Shown: in pieces, positions 1 to 8,094 of the stretch
How positions within the stretch are numbered: the stretch's first letter is position 1
Layout of the letters: each line of letters starts with the position of its first letter
DNA from: a virus
Taxonomy: Duplodnaviria > Heunggongvirae > Uroviricota > Caudoviricetes
DNA: 16,017 nt
Direction: 5' to 3' (one strand)
IMG/VR virus record: IMGVR_UViG_2622736468_000001
Notes under the pieces: generated by a model
Seen by the model: the letters and a program-made list of their open reading frames with translations, nothing else
What the model was told of the DNA's origin: nothing
The model's database searches: none
Program-made: the position numbers and the translations under genes

Positions 1-1215
1 ATGTTGCTTTCAGACCTTGCTATCCGCCGCGCGAAGCCAAAAGAGAAAGCCTATACACTCAATGACGGCAACGGGCTTTCGTTACTCATTGAGCCGAACG
101 GTTCGAAGGGCTGGCGATTGCGATACAGGTTTGCAGGCAAGCCCAAAATGTTGTCGCTGGGTGTTTATCCTGAGGTGTCCCTTTCTGATGCCAGGACGGC
201 AAGGGATGAGGCCAAAAGGCTTATCGCTGGTGGAGTTAATCCGAGTGAGGTCAGAAAGGCCCAAAAGCGAGAACAGGCGAACAAATGCGGTAACACCTTT
301 GAGGCGATCGCCCGTGAGTGGTATGAAAAACGCCTGGACCGATGGTCTCCCTCATATGCAGAGGAAATGATAGAGACGTTTGAAAAAGACGTTTTTCCGT
401 ACATTGGAGGTAGGCCCATCGCAGAGATTAAGCCGATGGAATTGCTCGCGGTTCTATCCCGTCTTAATGACCGTGGCGCAACTGAAAAATTGCGTAAGGT
501 TCGCCAGCGATGTGGCGAAGTGTTCCGGTACGCAATAATTACCGGACGCGCTGAATATAACCCCGCTCCTGATCTGGCAAGCGCATTTGCACCACACAAG
601 AAAGAGCATTACGCGTATCTGAAAGTTGATGAGCTACCGGAGTTTTTCCGCGTTTTTAATACGTACACCGGAAGCCAGATCGTCAAGCTGGGTATGCGAT
701 TGTTGATTCTTACAGGACTCCGCCCTGGTGAATTACGGCAGGCAGAGTGGCAGGAGATTGATTTTGATAATCGTCTGTGGGAAGTGCCGAAAGAACGAAT
801 GAAAATGCGCCGTTCTCATTGCGTGCCGCTTTCAGAACAGGCGATTGCTATTCTGGAACAACTGAAACACATGACGGGGCAGTATCCGTTTATTTTCCCT
901 GGTCGAATACAGCACAGTAAACCGATGAGTGAAATGGCGATGAACGTGCTTATTCGTCGTATTGGTTATGCAGGGCGTGTTACTGGTCATGGGTTCCGGC
1001 ACACCATGAGTACGATTTTGCACGAGCAGGGGTATAACTCCGCATGGATAGAAACGCAGCTGGCGCACGTCGATAAAAACTCGATCCGTGGCACATACAA
1101 TCACGCGCAATATCTGGACGGACGGCGGGAGATGCTCCAGTGGTACGCCGACTATATGGACTCACTGGAACAGGGCGGTAACGTGGTGCACGGCAAGTTT
1201 GGTGTATGTGCATAA
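1..1215 (+). CDS. int: Tyrosine recombinase / integrase, P4-type; start coincides with the window edge so the N-terminus may be clipped
   Basis: 404-aa ORF. N-terminal arm-binding-like region (AKPKEKAYTLNDGNGLSLLIEPNGSKGWRLRY) typical of P4/CP4-57-type integrases; C-terminal catalytic signature HGFRHT ... RGTYNHAQY (His-x-x-Arg plus catalytic Tyr). Confidence 0.9.
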   Translation: MLLSDLAIRRAKPKEKAYTLNDGNGLSLLIEPNGSKGWRLRYRFAGKPKMLSLGVYPEVSLSDARTARDEAKRLIAGGVNPSEVRKAQKREQANKCGNTFEAIAREWYEKRLDRWSPSYAEEMIETFEKDVFPYIGGRPIAEIKPMELLAVLSRLNDRGATEKLRKVRQRCGEVFRYAIITGRAEYNPAPDLASAFAPHKKEHYAYLKVDELPEFFRVFNTYTGSQIVKLGMRLLILTGLRPGELRQAEWQEIDFDNRLWEVPKERMKMRRSHCVPLSEQAIAILEQLKHMTGQYPFIFPGRIQHSKPMSEMAMNVLIRRIGYAGRVTGHGFRHTMSTILHEQGYNSAWIETQLAHVDKNSIRGTYNHAQYLDGRREMLQWYADYMDSLEQGGNVVHGKFGVCA

Positions 1216-1745
1216 AAACGACTGGACAAGTATACAGATGTATACTAACGTACACGGAAAGCTACAGCTAACATCCTTACAGAGGGTTTTTCACGCAGTT
1301 ATCCGTCATGTATGGGCGCTCTTTGTAACAACGAAGATTGAGTCTTCTACGCAGCTGAAAAGCTGGATGCTCTTTAACAGCCTTTAGTGCTTTCCTGATG
1401 CAGGAAAGAATGGTGATATATGCACTATTACAAAGCATGTAATGATTCATCCATGAGGCGGTGGAGCGCTGGCAAAGTGCTGTTGATCTTTAACATTGAT
1501 GCGGCGGGATGGTTCGTCCCGCAGTGACCGATAGATTTGCTATCGGGAAACATACAACGATTCAAATATGAATCTACGGCGCTGACAAAGCGCAATTGCT
1601 TTCTTGTCCGCCCACCATGTACTGAAAAAACGCTCTTTAAAACTACTGGACGTCACGCCTAATCGTGTGACCCCGCCGAAAGCGGGAATAGCTCTACCTT
1701 GCTGGAGCATACCAACCAAACAATCTGAATTTATCTTATGCAATA

Positions 1746-1775
1746 CCACAACATGTTTTCATGTTGTGGTTTTTG
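1746..1775 (+). terminator. Rho-independent terminator-like hairpin between int and alpA
   Basis: Perfect 10-bp inverted repeat CCACAACATG / CATGTTGTGG with a TTTT loop, followed by TTTTT (1770-1774). Confidence 0.55.
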
Positions 1776-1857
1776 TCGTGTTCGTAATTTGACGCAAATA
1801 AAACTCTTACTAAGCCACAGGAGGGGATTTCCGCGTCAACATTAAGGAGATTGATAA

Positions 1858-2061
1858 ATGGCTAATAACAATTCATTCATCCGTCTTTCTGAAGTTATGC
1901 GCCGTACTGGTTATGGTCGCGCATGGATTTATCGCCTGATCAGCCTGGGGCGTTTCCCTAAACCGGTAAAAATTGGTCCCCGCTCCGTGGCTTTTATTGA
2001 AAGTGAAGTCGACGAATGGATTAACCAGCGTATTGATGCTTCTCGCAACAACGCCGCGTAA
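1858..2061 (+). CDS. alpA: AlpA / Vis-like small DNA-binding regulator (excisionase-type helix-turn-helix)
   Basis: 67-aa ORF with AAGGAG 8 nt upstream of the ATG; sequence (FIRLSEVMRRTGYGRAWIYRLISLGRFPKPVKIGPRSVAFIESEVDEWI) matches the AlpA / prophage CP4-57 regulatory family. Confidence 0.85.
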   Translation: MANNNSFIRLSEVMRRTGYGRAWIYRLISLGRFPKPVKIGPRSVAFIESEVDEWINQRIDASRNNAA

Positions 2062-2125
2062 TAATCTTTTGGGTGGGGGTATTCTCCCCCAGCACTAAAC
2101 CTGATCCGATAGCAGGAGTTTTTCA

Positions 2126-2764
2126 ATGAAACGTCCGAATATGCTCGTACAGGGGCAGGGCTTCGTTCAGCCCGAAGAACTGAGCCAACAGTATTTCGCC
2201 GCAATTATTCCGGTAATTTCCGGCAATGAGATTATTGCTGACGGAATAAATAAAAATGCACTCACCGCGCCGGAAGTGTTTCCTTCTGGCGGTGAGCCTG
2301 TAACCACTTCACAGGCTATCGCCCGATTTTTCAGAAAGGATCACGATAAGGTTGTTAACCGGATTGAAAACCTGTGTTGTTCTGCTGAATTTTTAACCCG
2401 CAATTTTCGGCGGGTAAAATTTGAGCATAAGGGGCGCGTATTGAAAGCCTACGAAGTCACCAAAGACGGCTTCGTGTTTTTAACAATGGGATTTACCGGA
2501 AAAAAAGCGGCTGCATTCAAAGAGGCATACATTGCGCAGTTTAACCGCATGGCTAACTGGATAGCAGAGAGATGTGAGGCCAAAGCTGAGATGCGCTCTA
2601 TGGGGGATGCCATGAAGGGATACATTGAGCGCACTGGAGATACTCAACACGGTCATGCTTATAACAACGAATGTACTTTCATTGCGCGCCTTGTATTAGG
2701 GATGCACCCGCCTGTATGGGCCAAAAAAACGGCATCCCATCAAAAAAAGTTCGTGACCATATGA
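2126..2764 (+). CDS. Rha-family phage regulatory protein, N-terminal reading frame; the family-typical C-terminus continues in the -1 frame to 2916
   Basis: AGGAG Shine-Dalgarno; core VTTSQAIARFFRKDHDKVVNRIENL ... YEVTKDGFVFLTMGF resembles the Rha domain. The -1 frame (to 2916) encodes VRDHMTADQLALLAYLESRNCALLDMDMPTPERKERL, which resembles the usual Rha C-terminus. Confidence 0.7.
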   Translation: MKRPNMLVQGQGFVQPEELSQQYFAAIIPVISGNEIIADGINKNALTAPEVFPSGGEPVTTSQAIARFFRKDHDKVVNRIENLCCSAEFLTRNFRRVKFEHKGRVLKAYEVTKDGFVFLTMGFTGKKAAAFKEAYIAQFNRMANWIAERCEAKAEMRSMGDAMKGYIERTGDTQHGHAYNNECTFIARLVLGMHPPVWAKKTASHQKKFVTI

Positions 2765-3222
2765 CCGCTGATCAACTGGCGTTGCTCGCGTATCTGGAAA
2801 GCCGTAACTGTGCGCTACTGGATATGGATATGCCAACGCCAGAACGTAAAGAACGTCTCACCGAATTAGCCCAACGCTGGCTGGTCCGTCGCCTGGGAGA
2901 ACGTGAACATGCCTGACATCCGCAACGCTGCCGCCCTGTACATCGATACTGCGGATAAGTTCGCACAGGTGAGCATCAACCATGCTGATTACATGCGCCA
3001 TATCGTGAGCCATTTCGCCGCTGAGCGCATGAAACACGTTAAGCATTATCAGAAGGAGGCTTTATCAAATTATCGCGCTGGTGGCCCTGTACGGCGCGAA
3101 TATCCGCATGATGCAGGAATGGCAGGCAAAACAAAGGCGACCACGAAAGGGTCGCCAGTGGAGATAAAGGAAATCAAGCGCATTATCCACAATGCCATAT
3201 CTGAGGCTGGTGGACAATGCTA

Positions 3223-3501
3223 TCAGCCTGGCGGGCGATTTTTGGTTGCTTTTAGCCGCCGTGGGTATTTCCTGAGAAACTCTTCAAGTGCAAATTTTTT
3301 ATCTCTTGTATGCGATGCCTTTGACTCGTCGTCACATGTTTTTCCTCGTCTTATCCTGTTTTCAATAAAACGGGAAGCGGCCTTTTTATTCAGCGATGAA
3401 TCAATGGGGCTGCTCCCTGTTTGCTGCTCGACAATGGCATCCATGAGTAGTTGGTGTTGTAGTTGTCGTAAAAATTTCTCATCTTCTGGTGGTAAATCCA
3501 T
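3223..3501 (-). CDS. Hypothetical small protein, paralogue A (92 aa, MDLPPEDEKFLRQLQ...KKFALEEFLRKYPRRLKATKNRPPG)
   Basis: ATG at 3501 (minus) preceded by AGGAAA; C-terminal 22 residues conserved with the ORF at 3598-3777, with several synonymous third-position differences between the copies. Confidence 0.4.
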   Translation of the reverse strand: MDLPPEDEKFLRQLQHQLLMDAIVEQQTGSSPIDSSLNKKAASRFIENRIRRGKTCDDESKASHTRDKKFALEEFLRKYPRRLKATKNRPPG

Positions 3502-3597
3502 ACTTATTTCCTGTACAGCGGAGCGACGCAGCACCTCACACCACGGCGCTGATGGTTGTTATTCGTTTTATGGAGTCAGAGAAGCAAAAGCGGATCG

Positions 3598-3777
3598 CTA
3601 TCGGTTTTTAGGCGAGATTAATCGCCGTGGGTATTTGTCCAGAAATGCCTCAAGCGCAAATCGTTTTGGTCTGGTGAGAGGAGAGGGATTAAGCAAAGAC
3701 TCGCGTTCCAGGCGTACTTTTTCGCGCTGTCGCTCAAGTATGGATAATGCGATTTCCTGTAGTTCTTCATTTGTCAT
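3598..3777 (-). CDS. Hypothetical small protein, paralogue B (59 aa, MTNEELQEIALSILERQREKVRLERESLLNPSPLTRPKRFALEAFLDKYPRRLISPKNR)
   Basis: Translated by hand from the minus strand (under the 60-aa cut-off of the ORF track); C-terminus KRFALEAFLDKYPRRL matches paralogue A. Confidence 0.4.
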   Translation of the reverse strand: MTNEELQEIALSILERQREKVRLERESLLNPSPLTRPKRFALEAFLDKYPRRLISPKNR

Positions 3778-4060
3778 TGTCTGTACCCGTAAAGCGGTGC
3801 GCTGTAGTACCTCATATCACAGCGCAGGTATTTTTTATGGTTGTAATTTGCGTGATGATTCAGGTCGCTTTGCGACACACTGCATAAACATAAATAACGT
3901 GATGTTATTATGTGCTTTCAAAGAAAACGCAGGTATTTTTCGCACAAACTTCTCTCGCAACACATCCGACCACTTAAGCAAAAAAGCGGCATATACTGAG
4001 GCTATCCCTTATAAAACGGGGATCGGGATTACCACCCCGCTGGAGTTAGAGGCGATACAC

Positions 4061-4081
4061 GACGCGCCAGCGTCTTTTTTT
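4061..4081 (+). terminator. Possible intrinsic terminator (short GC stem plus T7 run)
   Basis: GACGC (4061-4065) / GCGTC (4070-4074) stem with a 4-nt loop, followed by TTTTTTT (4075-4081). Confidence 0.35.
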
Positions 4082-4246
4082 GTATCGGCGCACACGCACA
4101 CCTCAACAATGGTGGGCTGTATGGGGCCGACTTCGGTCGGGCTGGTTTCCTCTAACGCCAGTTGTGGTAACCCTGTACAGTCCACCGCCAGCGAGCTTAC
4201 CACCTCCGGCGGTGGGTATAATCCCAAAGTCAGAGGAGCCTTTCAC

Positions 4247-4417
4247 ATGGCTGTATCCGCACGCCCTTACTTTGTCTGGCGCTTTATGCAGTGCCTGACA
4301 GGTAGCATTGCAATATTCACCGTTACCGCTGCCACTGAGCGCGAAGCACGCGCGCAGCTGCCGCACGCACATCTGATTTTTGTCGCCCGTATCCGTCAGG
4401 AGGTGACTCATGCTTAA
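4247..4417 (+). CDS. Hypothetical small protein (56 aa), first gene of the operon leading to the primase
   Basis: GAGGAG 8 nt upstream of the ATG at 4247; a TATAAT hexamer at 4217-4222 lies just upstream; stop overlaps the next start. Confidence 0.45.
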   Translation: MAVSARPYFVWRFMQCLTGSIAIFTVTAATEREARAQLPHAHLIFVARIRQEVTHA

Positions 4418-4664
4418 AACCTTCCGTGTTTTTTCCCGTGCCGTTAATGCACGCGGCTATACCGTTGGCATCACGCAGAACGTGAAGGCCGAAAACGTCC
4501 AGGCTGCAATCAGCACAGTAATTAACAAATCAGCTAAAGCCGGTTTATCCGGCGTAATTATCCACGCCGTTCATGAAATTAAGGGGTGCAGTAATGCAGG
4601 AAATGACACTGGCAGAAGCCTCACTGAAAGCGCAACAGGTCGAAGTAATCAGCCGCATGATTGA
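4410..4664 (+). CDS. Hypothetical small protein
   Basis: AGGAGG 7 nt upstream of the ATG at 4410; the N-terminal ~57 aa look protein-like, the C-terminal tail is low complexity and overlaps the next gene, so the true end is uncertain. Confidence 0.45.
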   Translation: MLKTFRVFSRAVNARGYTVGITQNVKAENVQAAISTVINKSAKAGLSGVIIHAVHEIKGCSNAGNDTGRSLTESATGRSNQPHD

Positions 4665-4785
4665 ACGCAACCACGAAGAAATAGACGACCATGACCTTTC
4701 TGTTATTGCGGGACTTATCAAACAGCTTTCCAGCAATGTGGCGGTGTGGTTAATGACGGAGGAAGAAAAACGCGGCGAACAATAA
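4594..4785 (+). CDS. Hypothetical small protein (63 aa, helical/charged)
   Basis: AAGGGG 7 nt upstream of the ATG at 4594; the track ORF starting at 4573 is probably an upstream extension. Confidence 0.5.
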   Translation: MQEMTLAEASLKAQQVEVISRMIERNHEEIDDHDLSVIAGLIKQLSSNVAVWLMTEEEKRGEQ

Positions 4786-4841
4786 CGGCAAAAATAAACG
4801 GGAAATAAAGATTAAGACAACTCCTTCAGGAGATTAACTCA

Positions 4842-5141
4842 ATGACATCAAAAAATTCTGGCTTAACTGCCAGTGGCAAAGCTCAACCTGAATTTATGCG
4901 CGGGGATATTTACCGCGATAAGTACGGCGGCATCGTGACAATTATCAGCGTGAGAGAACGCCGTATCGCCTACCGCCGTGAAGGCTATGACTATGACTGC
5001 GTAATGCCACTGTATCAGTTCGCGCGTGATTTTTCTCTGGTGCAGTCCGTGCCGCGCGGTAAGCCAGCCAGCAACGCAAAAGCAGAGGCGAACATCCGAA
5101 AGATGAAAAACATGATTAACGCATTCAGGGGCAAGAAATGA
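4842..5141 (+). CDS. Hypothetical protein (99 aa), translationally coupled to the primase gene
   Basis: AGGAG upstream of the ATG at 4842; stop overlaps the primase start in an ATGA arrangement (5138-5141). Confidence 0.6.
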   Translation: MTSKNSGLTASGKAQPEFMRGDIYRDKYGGIVTIISVRERRIAYRREGYDYDCVMPLYQFARDFSLVQSVPRGKPASNAKAEANIRKMKNMINAFRGKK

Positions 5142-7276
5142 AAAGCGCACCGAATTTAAAAAAACAGCCGAAAGACAAAATGACCGAAGTCATTATCTTT
5201 GCGGGTAGTGATGCCTGGGCACATGCGAAAGAGTGGAGCGAATGGGCCGGAAAGCATATTGCAGCAGATGATACACCGCCCGTTATTCTTGGACCGAAAC
5301 AACTGGCGAGCCTGGAAGACACGAAAATCATCGATAAAGGGCGCAATTACGTGCGCGTTTATCGTGCTGGTGAAATATCAGAGACAGCACTTTTACAGAT
5401 AGCAACACTGCTTGCGGTGGCGGGTGTAAAGGAGGCACGCTGCTACAGCGGCTTTGTTGACCAGCAGCCGGAGGACTGGACACCGCGCATGGCTGGACTG
5501 AAGGATGATGCGGAACGCGGCAACTGCCTGGTGATCAATCTTCCGGCAAAGACAAATTTCACCGGAAATTATGATGACGAATTAAAACCCCGCGTTGAAT
5601 GCCGTCCTGATGGCGTTTACTGGGTGACGCCAAAGGTTGATAAGCAATCTGGCGAAATTATCCGTCCGTTCGAATGGCTGTGTTCTTCCGTTGAATTACT
5701 CGGTTCAGGTGTCATTGGTAACGAGCATTACCGCGTGATGCGCTGGACAGATTCGACAACAAATCGGCTTGTCACTATGGCTGTGCCTTGCTGCGGAATA
5801 GGCGACACTGACGGCTGGCGATTACTGAAAGCCAACGGGCTTAAAGTCACGACAAACGGAAAACACAGGATCCCCCTGGCTGACTGGATGCAGTTAGGCG
5901 GACAGCATGAGGAATGGCACTTAAGCCCGAAGGCTGGCTGGCATTTTGGCGCGTACATCATGCCGGACGGTACGGTTATCGGCGAATCTGACAAGCCCGT
6001 TTTGTTTACCGGAAAAAGTGCCGCGATTAACGGTTATTCCGTGGCAGGAACGGCGGAAAGCTGGCGCGACAGCGTGGCGCGGCTGGCTGGTGGCAATCCG
6101 TTCATGATGCTGGGTATAGCGACGTCATTATCCGCGCCATTAGTCGGGCTGACAGGCGCTGATGGTTTTGGCGTGCATTTTTTCGAGCAATCCACAGCAG
6201 GCAAGACCACAACGCAGAGCATCGCGTCGAGCTTGTGGGGCGATCCTGAGGCGCTGCGATTAACCTGGTACGGAACGGCGCTGGGGATAGCTAACGAAGC
6301 AGAAGCACACAATCACGGACTCCTTCCACTGGACGAGATAGGGCAGGCAGGAAGCCCCCGTGACGTGTACGTATCCTCATACACTTTGTTCAATGGATTC
6401 GGAAAATTACAGGGGGCAAAGGACGGCGGCAACAGAGAGCTGAAAAACTGGCGGACCGTTGCTATCAGCACCGGAGAGGTGGATATCGAAACATACCTCA
6501 AAACGTCGGGGATAAAAGTTAAGGTCGGGCAACTTGTGCGCCTGCTCAATATCCCGATTCAAAAAGCCACGCAGTTACACGAATACAGCAACGGAAAGGA
6601 TCACGCTGACGCATTGAAGGCGGCATGGCAAGAAAACCACGGCGCAGCGGGGCGTGAGTGGATTAAATGGCTTGCGGAGAACCAGCAGGAAGCTAAGGAC
6701 GCGGTTAGAGAGAGCCGTGCACGCTGGCGAAATATCATTCCAGACAATTACGGTGAGCAGGTCCACCGCGTGGGTGAACGTTTCTCCATACTGGAGGCCG
6801 CGCTTGTGCTTTCCGGTCATGTAACTGGCTGGTCCGTGCAGGAATGCCGCGATGCAATTCAGTATGTATTTAATGCCTGGGTAAAAGAATTTGGCACGGG
6901 CAACAAGGAACACAAACAGATCATTGAGCAGGCAGAGGCGTTTCTTGCTGCCTACGGCATGAGCCGTTTTGCGCCCGTTGATTATGACCCAGCCAGCCTG
7001 CCGATTTCTGAGCTGTACGGCTACAGGGATTCGGGAAGCCGTTACGATGAACCATTGTTGTTTTACGTATTATCGGAGCCGTTTAAATCGAAAGTAGCGG
7101 AAGGCTTCAACAAGGATACCGTTGCAAAAATACTCCACGAAGCTGGAATGCTGAAACGACCAGAGAGCGGGAGAGGATGGAAAATCAAGACCCCACGCCT
7201 TAAGAACCTTAATGGAGCGCAATTATGGGCCTACGGGATGTTGTTCGCTAATCACGATGAGGAGGGAAGCGATTAA
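5138..7276 (+). CDS. Replication initiator: primase/helicase-like protein (pri-rep; P4 alpha / DUF927-like)
   Basis: 712-aa ORF with a Walker-A-like STAGKTTTQS motif mid-protein; sits immediately upstream of an iteron-rich AT-rich origin, the arrangement seen in P4-like and PICI replicons. Family assignment is from recall, not a search. Confidence 0.8.
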   Translation: MKSAPNLKKQPKDKMTEVIIFAGSDAWAHAKEWSEWAGKHIAADDTPPVILGPKQLASLEDTKIIDKGRNYVRVYRAGEISETALLQIATLLAVAGVKEARCYSGFVDQQPEDWTPRMAGLKDDAERGNCLVINLPAKTNFTGNYDDELKPRVECRPDGVYWVTPKVDKQSGEIIRPFEWLCSSVELLGSGVIGNEHYRVMRWTDSTTNRLVTMAVPCCGIGDTDGWRLLKANGLKVTTNGKHRIPLADWMQLGGQHEEWHLSPKAGWHFGAYIMPDGTVIGESDKPVLFTGKSAAINGYSVAGTAESWRDSVARLAGGNPFMMLGIATSLSAPLVGLTGADGFGVHFFEQSTAGKTTTQSIASSLWGDPEALRLTWYGTALGIANEAEAHNHGLLPLDEIGQAGSPRDVYVSSYTLFNGFGKLQGAKDGGNRELKNWRTVAISTGEVDIETYLKTSGIKVKVGQLVRLLNIPIQKATQLHEYSNGKDHADALKAAWQENHGAAGREWIKWLAENQQEAKDAVRESRARWRNIIPDNYGEQVHRVGERFSILEAALVLSGHVTGWSVQECRDAIQYVFNAWVKEFGTGNKEHKQIIEQAEAFLAAYGMSRFAPVDYDPASLPISELYGYRDSGSRYDEPLLFYVLSEPFKSKVAEGFNKDTVAKILHEAGMLKRPESGRGWKIKTPRLKNLNGAQLWAYGMLFANHDEEGSD

Positions 7277-7677
7277 CTACGCGTATATAAGATGAAAAAA
7301 TGTTGCCTCAGTTGCCTCAAACAGTAATAAATATATATATGTGATTGATTTATATGTTTTATTTCTGTTTTTACTGAGGCAACAATTGCTCATTTTGAGG
7401 CAACAATTACCCATTTTGAGGCAACAACTGCCCATTTTGAGGCAACACGGCTGACAGGTTTTGTTTGTCTGAACGGAACCAACGTGATGTTGCCTCAAAT
7501 ACCCCCTATTGTTGCCTCAAATCGACATGATGTCGCCTCAATTTTTTTGTGATTATTAATCAAATCAATACGTTAAGACGTTTGAGGCAACTGAGGCAAC
7601 TGAGGCGACTGAGGCGACACGTTTTTCCTATATATATAAAGCGTGTGAATGATGTGATGCCTGGAAGGAGACGATTC
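7277..7677. repeat. Putative origin of replication: iterons (TTGAGGCAAC / GTTGCCTCAA) plus AT-rich tracts
   Basis: Four copies of TTGAGGCAACA at 22-bp spacing (about 7394-7449), three inverted copies GTTGCCTCAA(A) (7488-7540), four tandem 9-mers CTGAGGC(A/G)A (7581-7616), two more inverted copies near 7304-7321, and AT-rich stretches around 7326-7375 and 7627-7640. Confidence 0.7.
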
Positions 7678-8094
7678 ATGATCAAAAAAACAAGTGAAAC
7701 GGAATCTGTTGTGAGGTTCGTATCGGTACGAGGCAGAGCCACGCTTTATATACCTGACGAACATCTGCATCACTGCGATGAAAAACATATCCCGATCCTG
7801 ATTGTCTGGAAGCGAACGGTATACGCCGATGTGACATGGCTGAATGATTCGCTGATGTTGATACACCGTGACCTGTTTGAACGTGAAGAGTTCCGGCGGG
7901 ATATTGAAGAGCGGGCAGAAAAAATCTATGAGAAATATTCAGCAAACAGCAAAAGATCCGCACGGGCAATCGCTCACCATTTCATGACGCTGTATGACCT
8001 GAAAGCGGAAGATGCAGAAAAAGCGGCATGTGATTTATTCGATATGACAATGGGGATTATCCAGGAGTACCGGAACAAGGAGCGCAGACCATGA
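7678..8094 (+). CDS. Hypothetical protein (138 aa), coupled to the downstream ssb
   Basis: AAGGAG 8 nt upstream of the ATG at 7678; the longer track ORF from 7549 merely translates the iterons. Stop overlaps the ssb start (ATGA at 8091). Confidence 0.65.
   Translation: MIKKTSETESVVRFVSVRGRATLYIPDEHLHHCDEKHIPILIVWKRTVYADVTWLNDSLMLIHRDLFEREEFRRDIEERAEKIYEKYSANSKRSARAIAHHFMTLYDLKAEDAEKAACDLFDMTMGIIQEYRNKERRP

Follow-up and report, generated by a model that had tools for sequence, protein, structure and literature searches.

A split Rha-family gene in a P4-like Escherichia coli island is probably the result of a one-nucleotide deletion in a poly-A run

The window (the whole 16,017-nucleotide stretch of DNA analysed here) contains an integrative island of about 13.5 kb, an E. 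coli satellite that lies at tRNA-Gly in related genomes. The gene order is integrase, AlpA, Rha, C4-type RNA with the end of an Icd-like ORF, DUF4222, DUF927 primase-helicase, SSB, DNA cytosine methyltransferase, KilA-N fragment and Q antiterminator (Table 1). The succession of integrase, AlpA, a CI/C4-type RNA with an Icd-like ORF and a primase-helicase is that of a P4-like element. None of sid, psu, delta and epsilon is listed in the annotation of an identical island, which has the SSB, methyltransferase, Q antiterminator and KilA-N fragment instead. Among the small ORFs neighbouring the Rha gene, AlpA alone matched a Pfam family. The C4 RNA is located just upstream of the end of the Icd-like ORF and the primase operon, marking a P4/P1-like immunity module.

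Table 1. Features of the island and of the Rha locus, in window coordinates
Feature	Position	Strand	Evidence and remarks
Tyrosine integrase	1..1215	+	ORF list; annotation of relatives
AlpA-family HTH regulator	1858..2061	+	Pfam PF05930, E 2e-20; directly upstream of the Rha gene
Rha-family ORF, truncated	2126..2764	+	212 aa, ORF list; ends at TGA 2762-2764
A7 tract, site of the 1-nt deletion	2723..2729	+	Sole gap in the DNA alignment; intact alleles have A8 (GCC AAA AAA AAC) or AGAAAAAA
Displaced C-terminal coding segment, -1 frame	2728..2916	+	N201 to A263 of the intact protein, stop TGA 2914-2916; translation equals the C-terminus of intact homologues
A_AAA_AAG heptamer	2743..2749	+	Within an A7 run (2742-2748) followed by G; zero-frame codons CAT CAA AAA AAG TTC (CAA at 2741-43)
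51-aa ORF	2761..2916	+	Called by gene finders; ATG 2761-2763 is the conserved Met213
C4-type antisense RNA (P1 c4 / P4 CI class)	4105..4192	+	Rfam RF01695, 77.7 bits
Primase-helicase, DUF927	5138..7276		Annotation of identical islands; preceded by the end of the Icd-like ORF and DUF4222

Several observations concern the island outside the Rha gene. A stop-free ORF of 504 aa runs through 2903-4417 (+) and is annotated by PGAP as a 502-aa 'Icd-like protein'. It crosses the C4 RNA as well as plausible minus-strand genes at 3223-3534 (-) and 3598-3777 (-), which have the C-terminal motif FALExFLxKYPRRL in common, and its ATG at 2909 overlaps the stop codon of the intact Rha gene (ATGCCTGA). Because the Icd-like gene of relatives is only 62-154 aa long, the long ORF has probably been extended too far or is a shadow ORF. 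The region of about 8758-10909 holds the DNA cytosine methyltransferase and then an overlapping gene for a 358-aa hypothetical protein (coordinates from the annotation of an identical island), and the two may constitute a restriction-modification or defence pair. In strain JNEC-KY203 (NZ_AP045179.1, 1-2780; H1, also L001), an IS421 transposase is inserted between alpA and Rha and the integrase is frameshifted, both of which represent further decay of the element. Alignment with the near-identical island of S1-KEN-03-A stops at window position 13473, and the right end of the window (about 13473-16017) differs from the flank of that island, which carries GH15 and ETT2 remnants.

The Rha-family ORF starts at ATG 2126, 8 nt downstream of an AGGAG, whereas PGAP places the gene start at ATG 2141. 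Residues 60-143 of its 212-aa product match Pfam PF09669 (Phage_pRha) with 79.9 bits and an E value of 2e-22, and this score, above the gathering cut-off of 29.9, places it in the Rha family. Residues 1-200 are native, and the final 12 are read out of frame (TASHQKKFVTI with the preceding shift). The -1 frame is open across 2671..2916. The first-pass annotation had the Rha frame stopping at 2764 and the -1 frame continuing to 2916, and all of the coordinates that it gave are correct. Its reading of the -1 frame as the normal Rha C-terminus also agrees with the protein alignment and with PHROG 2657, which covers residues 52-251 of the A8-repaired protein, that is, the translation with one A restored to the run at 2723-2729. 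The start of the 51-aa ORF overlaps the premature stop in an ATGA. A 51-residue gene is called in carrier loci, and its equivalent in a divergent allele is P0135. A separate start at ATG 2671, giving an 81-aa ORF, was rejected, as its first 19 codons are conserved Rha sequence read out of frame and no gene caller uses it. The gene is split inconsistently by annotation pipelines, either into a 212-aa Rha protein and a 51-aa ORF or as a pseudogene.

Two A runs lie near the point where the frames part. A megablast search of 2126-2916 against 5,426 complete E. coli genomes yielded seven full-length copies, three of them 99.9-100% identical to the window and four 91-96% identical and one base longer. 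Within the gene body, the DNA alignment revealed a single gap against the intact relatives, and this gap falls in the first run. The window reads GCC AAA AAA ACG there in the zero frame; its A7 is found also in H1 and in H2, where the length was checked by direct search. Among the copies with intact Rha genes (H4-H7), the run is A8 in H5 and H6, and H4 reads GCC AGA AAA AAC. The second run and the G behind it are the same in all aligned copies, and the intact genes read them as TCA AAA AAA GTT (Ser-Lys-Lys-Val). Because the only gap lies in the first run and the second run is identical throughout, we place the lesion, a 1-nt deletion, at 2723-2729, which is 14-20 nt upstream of the heptamer.

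The heptamer itself is as the first-pass annotation described it. It stands in the zero frame (AAA 2744-46, AAG 2747-49), as in dnaX, and a -1 slip at 2743-2749 would give a 263-aa fusion where about 260 aa had been predicted. However, the X_XXY_YYZ register exists in the deleted allele only, and it arises because of the upstream deletion. A frame change at the heptamer, as claimed in the first-pass annotation, was not confirmed, since the base missing against intact relatives is in the first run; across the interval between the two sites, homologues read NGIPSKK and not TASHQKK. This first run, which the annotation had pointed out as a second A7 stretch, is itself the lesion. The number of AAAAAAG motifs in the window is no greater than expected by chance (7 versus 4.8 ± 2.1), and A7 runs number 11 versus 7.3 ± 3.3 expected. 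Another in-frame slippery heptamer, A_AAA_AAA, is present at 2500-2506 (GGA AAA AAA GCG), where it codes for the conserved TGKKAA of the Rha domain and is linked with no frame anomaly.

Comparison with homologues gave the same picture at the protein level. The intact E. coli protein P0134 (NCBI, 258 aa) has 0 mismatches to the A8-repaired translation, therefore an intact form of the same allele exists; P0134 is known here from its protein sequence only, as is P0137, a second A7 allele. With the A8-repaired protein as query, hundreds of relatives were retrieved, 250-270 aa in length. The 17 homologues that were aligned, whether their N-terminus is of the Rha or the AntA type, all contain WAKxxGIPxKxVRDHM.. 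in a single frame, and full-length homologues read ..LVLGMHPxVWAKxxGIPxKxVRDHMxADQLALLAYLESRNCALLDLD..ERKxKLTELAQRWL.. in one frame. The single-frame proteins include those of Salmonella, Klebsiella, Enterobacter, Buttiauxella, Xenorhabdus, Photorhabdus and Orbus, and the frame is single also where the C-terminal domain follows an AntA/AntB N-terminal domain rather than Rha. The junction of the A8-repaired protein, WAKKNGIPSKKVRD, agrees with these homologues, whereas the junction that a slip at the heptamer would create, WAKKTASHQKKVRD, disagrees. Of the 16 species loci, 15 yielded the motif region at the DNA level, and it was single-frame in all 15, with A runs of at most A4-A6 or with none. 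In addition, Streptococcus phage Rha proteins aligned over residues 62-259 as a single tblastn piece. A conserved heptamer or two-frame layout was not found among the 15 located species loci and all the aligned proteins. That the intact genes slip in a programmed manner at their A8 or A7 runs was considered and rejected, these runs being unconserved beyond the E. coli/Salmonella clade.

The first-pass annotation, headed by a frame change, had proposed to ask whether Rha homologues are single-frame and had named a single continuous A8 frame as evidence against it. All the homologues compared proved to be single-frame, and close relatives do have A8 in one continuous frame. The frameshifted state of this Rha allele is already known: PGAP/RefSeq labels identical copies as 'Rha family transcriptional regulator, frameshifted' and gives the relatives intact genes, 263-268 aa in length. 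Aligning a few close relatives is sufficient to tell recoding from an upstream deletion.

The surroundings of the heptamer were searched for the stimulators of a dnaX-type site, an internal Shine-Dalgarno element about 10 nt upstream and a stable hairpin or pseudoknot 5-8 nt downstream, and neither was found. The 28 nt upstream of the heptamer (TATGGGCCAAAAAAACGGCATCCCATCA) contain no Shine-Dalgarno-like element. Downstream, the folds of 2750-2799, 2750-2829 and 2730-2789 have energies of -10 to -17 kcal/mol, and none exceeds dinucleotide shuffles in stability (z = 0.16, 0.66 and 0.72). A scan of the whole window with Rfam gathering thresholds detected no frameshift element, its sole match being the C4 antisense RNA.

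The A7 allele is widespread. The exact 212-aa product was found on 429 contigs and in 678 collection blocks from NCBI, JGI, Logan and ENA, with E. coli MRE600 (CP014197) and an NCTC assembly among the carriers; the source types comprise complete genomes, NCTC, Illumina-type drafts and SPAdes or MEGAHIT metagenomes. In each of the nine loci retrieved, as in three RefSeq genomes, the run was exactly A7 and identity over 2126-2916 was 99.9-100%; MRE600 matches the window at 100% over 1-5764. Intact versions of the same allele occur on about 1-10 contigs each in the sampled part of the cluster, against 429 for A7. Across eight carriers, MRE600 included, the 870 nt of chromosomal flank from actS to tRNA-Gly vary by up to 0.7% and the island by no more than 0.09%, therefore the broken allele resides in more than one host background. 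As judged from these 870 nt, this could reflect horizontal spread, local recombination or sampling. Two copies (L006 and L020) have an internal deletion of about 4 kb that joins window position 3992 to 8014 and removes the C4 RNA, icd, DUF4222 and the primase region; both keep the A7 Rha gene, and therefore the frameshift is older than that deletion. The displaced C-terminal frame bears no secondary lesions, but this is uninformative since the carriers are about 100% identical; the sole variant among them in this segment, 2901 A>G, leaves the protein of the -1 frame unchanged.

Run-length changes also recur. P0137, from a second allele lineage that is about 88% identical, is likewise 212 aa long and ends in the same out-of-frame tail; the C-terminal part is called there as the separate 51-aa ORF P0135. 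From the same lineage, P0011 (L015; 210 aa) has A9 at the DNA level. A metagenome scan with a pattern that allowed 6-10 bases in the first run and fixed the second at A7G found the first run as A6 once, A7 three times and A8 twice, which are small counts, and the A6 contig, at 2.25x coverage, may be an error. Viral contigs were scanned for the region of both runs, with the run lengths free to vary, and gave no match. AAA is the preferred lysine codon of E. coli, so A runs arise without selection for slipperiness. Taken with the sequences of the relatives, the pattern fits replication slippage at an A8 run, and the tract appears to be an indel hot spot, at which variant calls need care.

We therefore favour, with a probability of roughly 87%, a heritable 1-nt deletion that shortened A8 to A7 at 2723-2729, an ordinary frameshift mutation and not dnaX-style recoding. 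Of the four options left by the first-pass annotation, this is the '1-bp deletion pseudogene', which gains support from the mapping of the lesion and from the intact relatives: intact orthologues exist, near-identical ones included, and the 1-nt change of run length is reproduced across independent assemblies. Replication slippage would shorten the coding A8 to A7, and out-of-frame alleles would arise repeatedly. Past Lys200 the ribosome would read 12 out-of-frame codons and stop at the premature TGA. The heptamer would be a by-product, in which the deletion has shifted the normal Ser-Lys-Lys-Val run into a slippery register. The gene so affected encodes the Rha-N/Ant-C-type regulator of a P4-like integrative island and is situated between alpA and the C4-RNA/icd/primase module. 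A perfect in-frame A_AAA_AAG beside a frame break can mimic recoding while passively following from an upstream homopolymer deletion, and such sites call for caution.

The consequence for the protein was considered on the AlphaFold model of the intact homologue P0001, which is 96% identical (mean pLDDT 74.6). The model has a disordered N-terminus (1-46), a Rha domain (52-120), a long helix (126-170) and a helical C-terminal domain (178-260) with pLDDT of about 85-93. Residue 200 lies within this confidently modelled helical domain, which the frameshift cuts in half; the helices 215-233 and 238-260 are lost, and with them near-invariant residues including R210, M213, Q217, L218, Y223, L224, D233, D235, R241, K242 and W252. 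The product would retain the winged-helix-like Rha domain and the long helix and would lack the last 63 or so residues, with which the conserved helical C-terminal domain loses its second half. From this model we infer that truncation abolishes or changes the function of Rha. The best hit of a Foldseek search against the PDB was the DNA-binding dimer DdrC, a weak similarity over the whole chain (E 1e-4, TM 0.34-0.38) that is a lead and not a classification. A PDB sequence search with the family profile gave chance-level serpin matches only.

Two considerations temper the description of the deleted allele as a plain dead pseudogene. In the databases the A7 allele is far commoner than its intact counterparts, and it occurs in hosts with differing flanks; its abundance could stem from a hitch-hiking clone, from horizontal spread or from a selected hypomorph. 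Against complete loss, A_AAA_AAG is the most slip-prone heptamer of E. coli, and some rescue is conceivable (PMC10861913, PMC4066793). Residual full-length or split protein is possibly made at the percent level, and three routes may be envisaged. The first is an unprogrammed -1 slip at A_AAA_AAG, which would yield 263 aa with five substituted residues; such a product would contain VWAKKTASHQKKVRDHM, and the product of slippage at the first run would contain VWAKKNGIPSKKVRDHM. The second is the addition of an A by RNA-polymerase slippage in either A7 run, a process that works efficiently on runs of 9 but weakly on shorter ones (PMC5009743). The third is termination-reinitiation at the AUGA formed by TGA 2762-2764 and ATG 2761-2763. 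Since MRE600, a standard strain for ribosome preparation, carries the A7 allele, claims of rescue are directly testable in existing material.

The alternative that survives best is that the locus is a phase-variable contingency switch, in which slipped-strand mispairing toggles Rha, or else a selected hypomorph whose low residual expression is advantageous. We consider it very unlikely. Run lengths of A6, A7, A8 and A9 among close relatives and the -1 lesion in two diverged alleles would be in line with it, some of these states coming from low-coverage contigs and in small counts. The shifted allele predominates in hosts with differing flanks, although contig counts are not counts of independent lineages. 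The out-of-frame stop overlaps the conserved Met213 codon, a 'savior indel plus compensatory frameshifting' is a category recognised elsewhere (PMC5009743), and under overexpression a C-AAA-AAA sequence has restored the product of 1-nt deletions at 25-60% (PMC1851650). However, E. coli is proficient in mismatch repair and A8 is a short tract. The tract is also interrupted in H4-type alleles (AGAAAAAA) and missing from other genera, and the codon preference for AAA makes selection needless for explaining such runs. Furthermore, other parts of the island decay too, as seen in the IS421 insertion, the frameshifted integrase, the KilA-N fragment and the internal deletion. In its fullest form, this alternative would make the poly-A tract an on/off or dimmer switch, whose A7 'off' form gives the 212-aa protein, a trickle of full-length protein by -1 or RNA-polymerase slippage and possibly a 51-aa reinitiation peptide, the hypomorph being selected since it tames the island; we regard that version as very unlikely. 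If true, a switch or hypomorph would add one modest case to the known compensatory frameshifts, here in the regulator of a phage satellite.

If a programmed event took place at 2743-2749, be it dnaX-type -1 frameshifting or transcriptional slippage, the gene would deliberately produce 212-aa and 263-aa Rha forms; this we judge highly improbable. The allele is abundant, the heptamer is in the right register, a -1 slip there restores the conserved C-terminus, and A_AAA_AAG is among the best slippery motifs of E. coli (PMC4066793, PMC10861913), with error frameshifting above 1% cited for it (PMC10861913). Nevertheless, a slip at the heptamer would repair a discontinuity that maps to the upstream run and would leave TASHQKK in place of the conserved NGIPSKK; single-frame intact versions of the same allele exist; and the 15 located species loci conserve no heptamer and no two-frame layout. 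The site has no SD-like element upstream and no downstream structure beyond shuffled controls; heptamers lacking stimulators reached just 2-10 times a background of about 0.055% in a systematic study in E. coli (PMC4066793). The two-isoform reading of the first-pass annotation, whether by frameshifting or by slippage, is thus left unsupported by the position of the indel, the single-frame homologues, the unconserved A runs and the missing stimulators. A homopolymer sequencing or assembly error in a genome with a true A8 and an intact gene, also raised in that annotation, is scarcely credible and was rejected: a 1-nt under-call in a long homopolymer is a classic long-read error and some low-coverage metagenome contigs with odd run lengths (A6, 2.25x) may be errors, but the identical A7 allele and 212-aa product have been assembled independently hundreds of times, by different projects and with different assemblers, and every sampled carrier has exactly A7.

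The split Rha gene may be set beside known systems. Similar to the Rha and AntA-AntB phage regulatory (antirepressor-like) proteins, the present protein has the Phage_pRha N-terminal domain, and with the enterobacterial AntA/AntB proteins its family has in common a C-terminal domain of about 115 aa at 60-70% identity; unlike them, the present copy is cut in the middle of that domain. The programmed -1 frameshift of E. coli dnaX uses A_AAA_AAG together with an upstream SD and a downstream hairpin, and the single tRNA-Lys of E. coli is slip-prone on AAG. The identical heptamer stands here in the zero frame of the shifted allele, whereas the upstream SD and the downstream hairpin are absent and the heptamer is unconserved. 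In addition, the slip in dnaX brings the ribosome to a stop codon and shortens the product, whereas a slip in Rha would merely repair an upstream deletion, the frame break being elsewhere. The 'savior/problem indel' of the herpesvirus thymidine kinase G-run (Atkins et al. 2016, PMC5009743) is alike in that a homopolymer indel lies near a slip-prone sequence and could yield a trickle of full-length protein, although any full-length Rha product here is one that we purely infer. With the homopolymer-indel pseudogenes or alleles flagged by PGAP, the Rha allele shares a 1-nt loss in an A8 run, intact orthologues and the 'frameshifted' label; in contrast to a casual pseudogene of this sort, the A7 allele of Rha is unusually abundant and recurrent.
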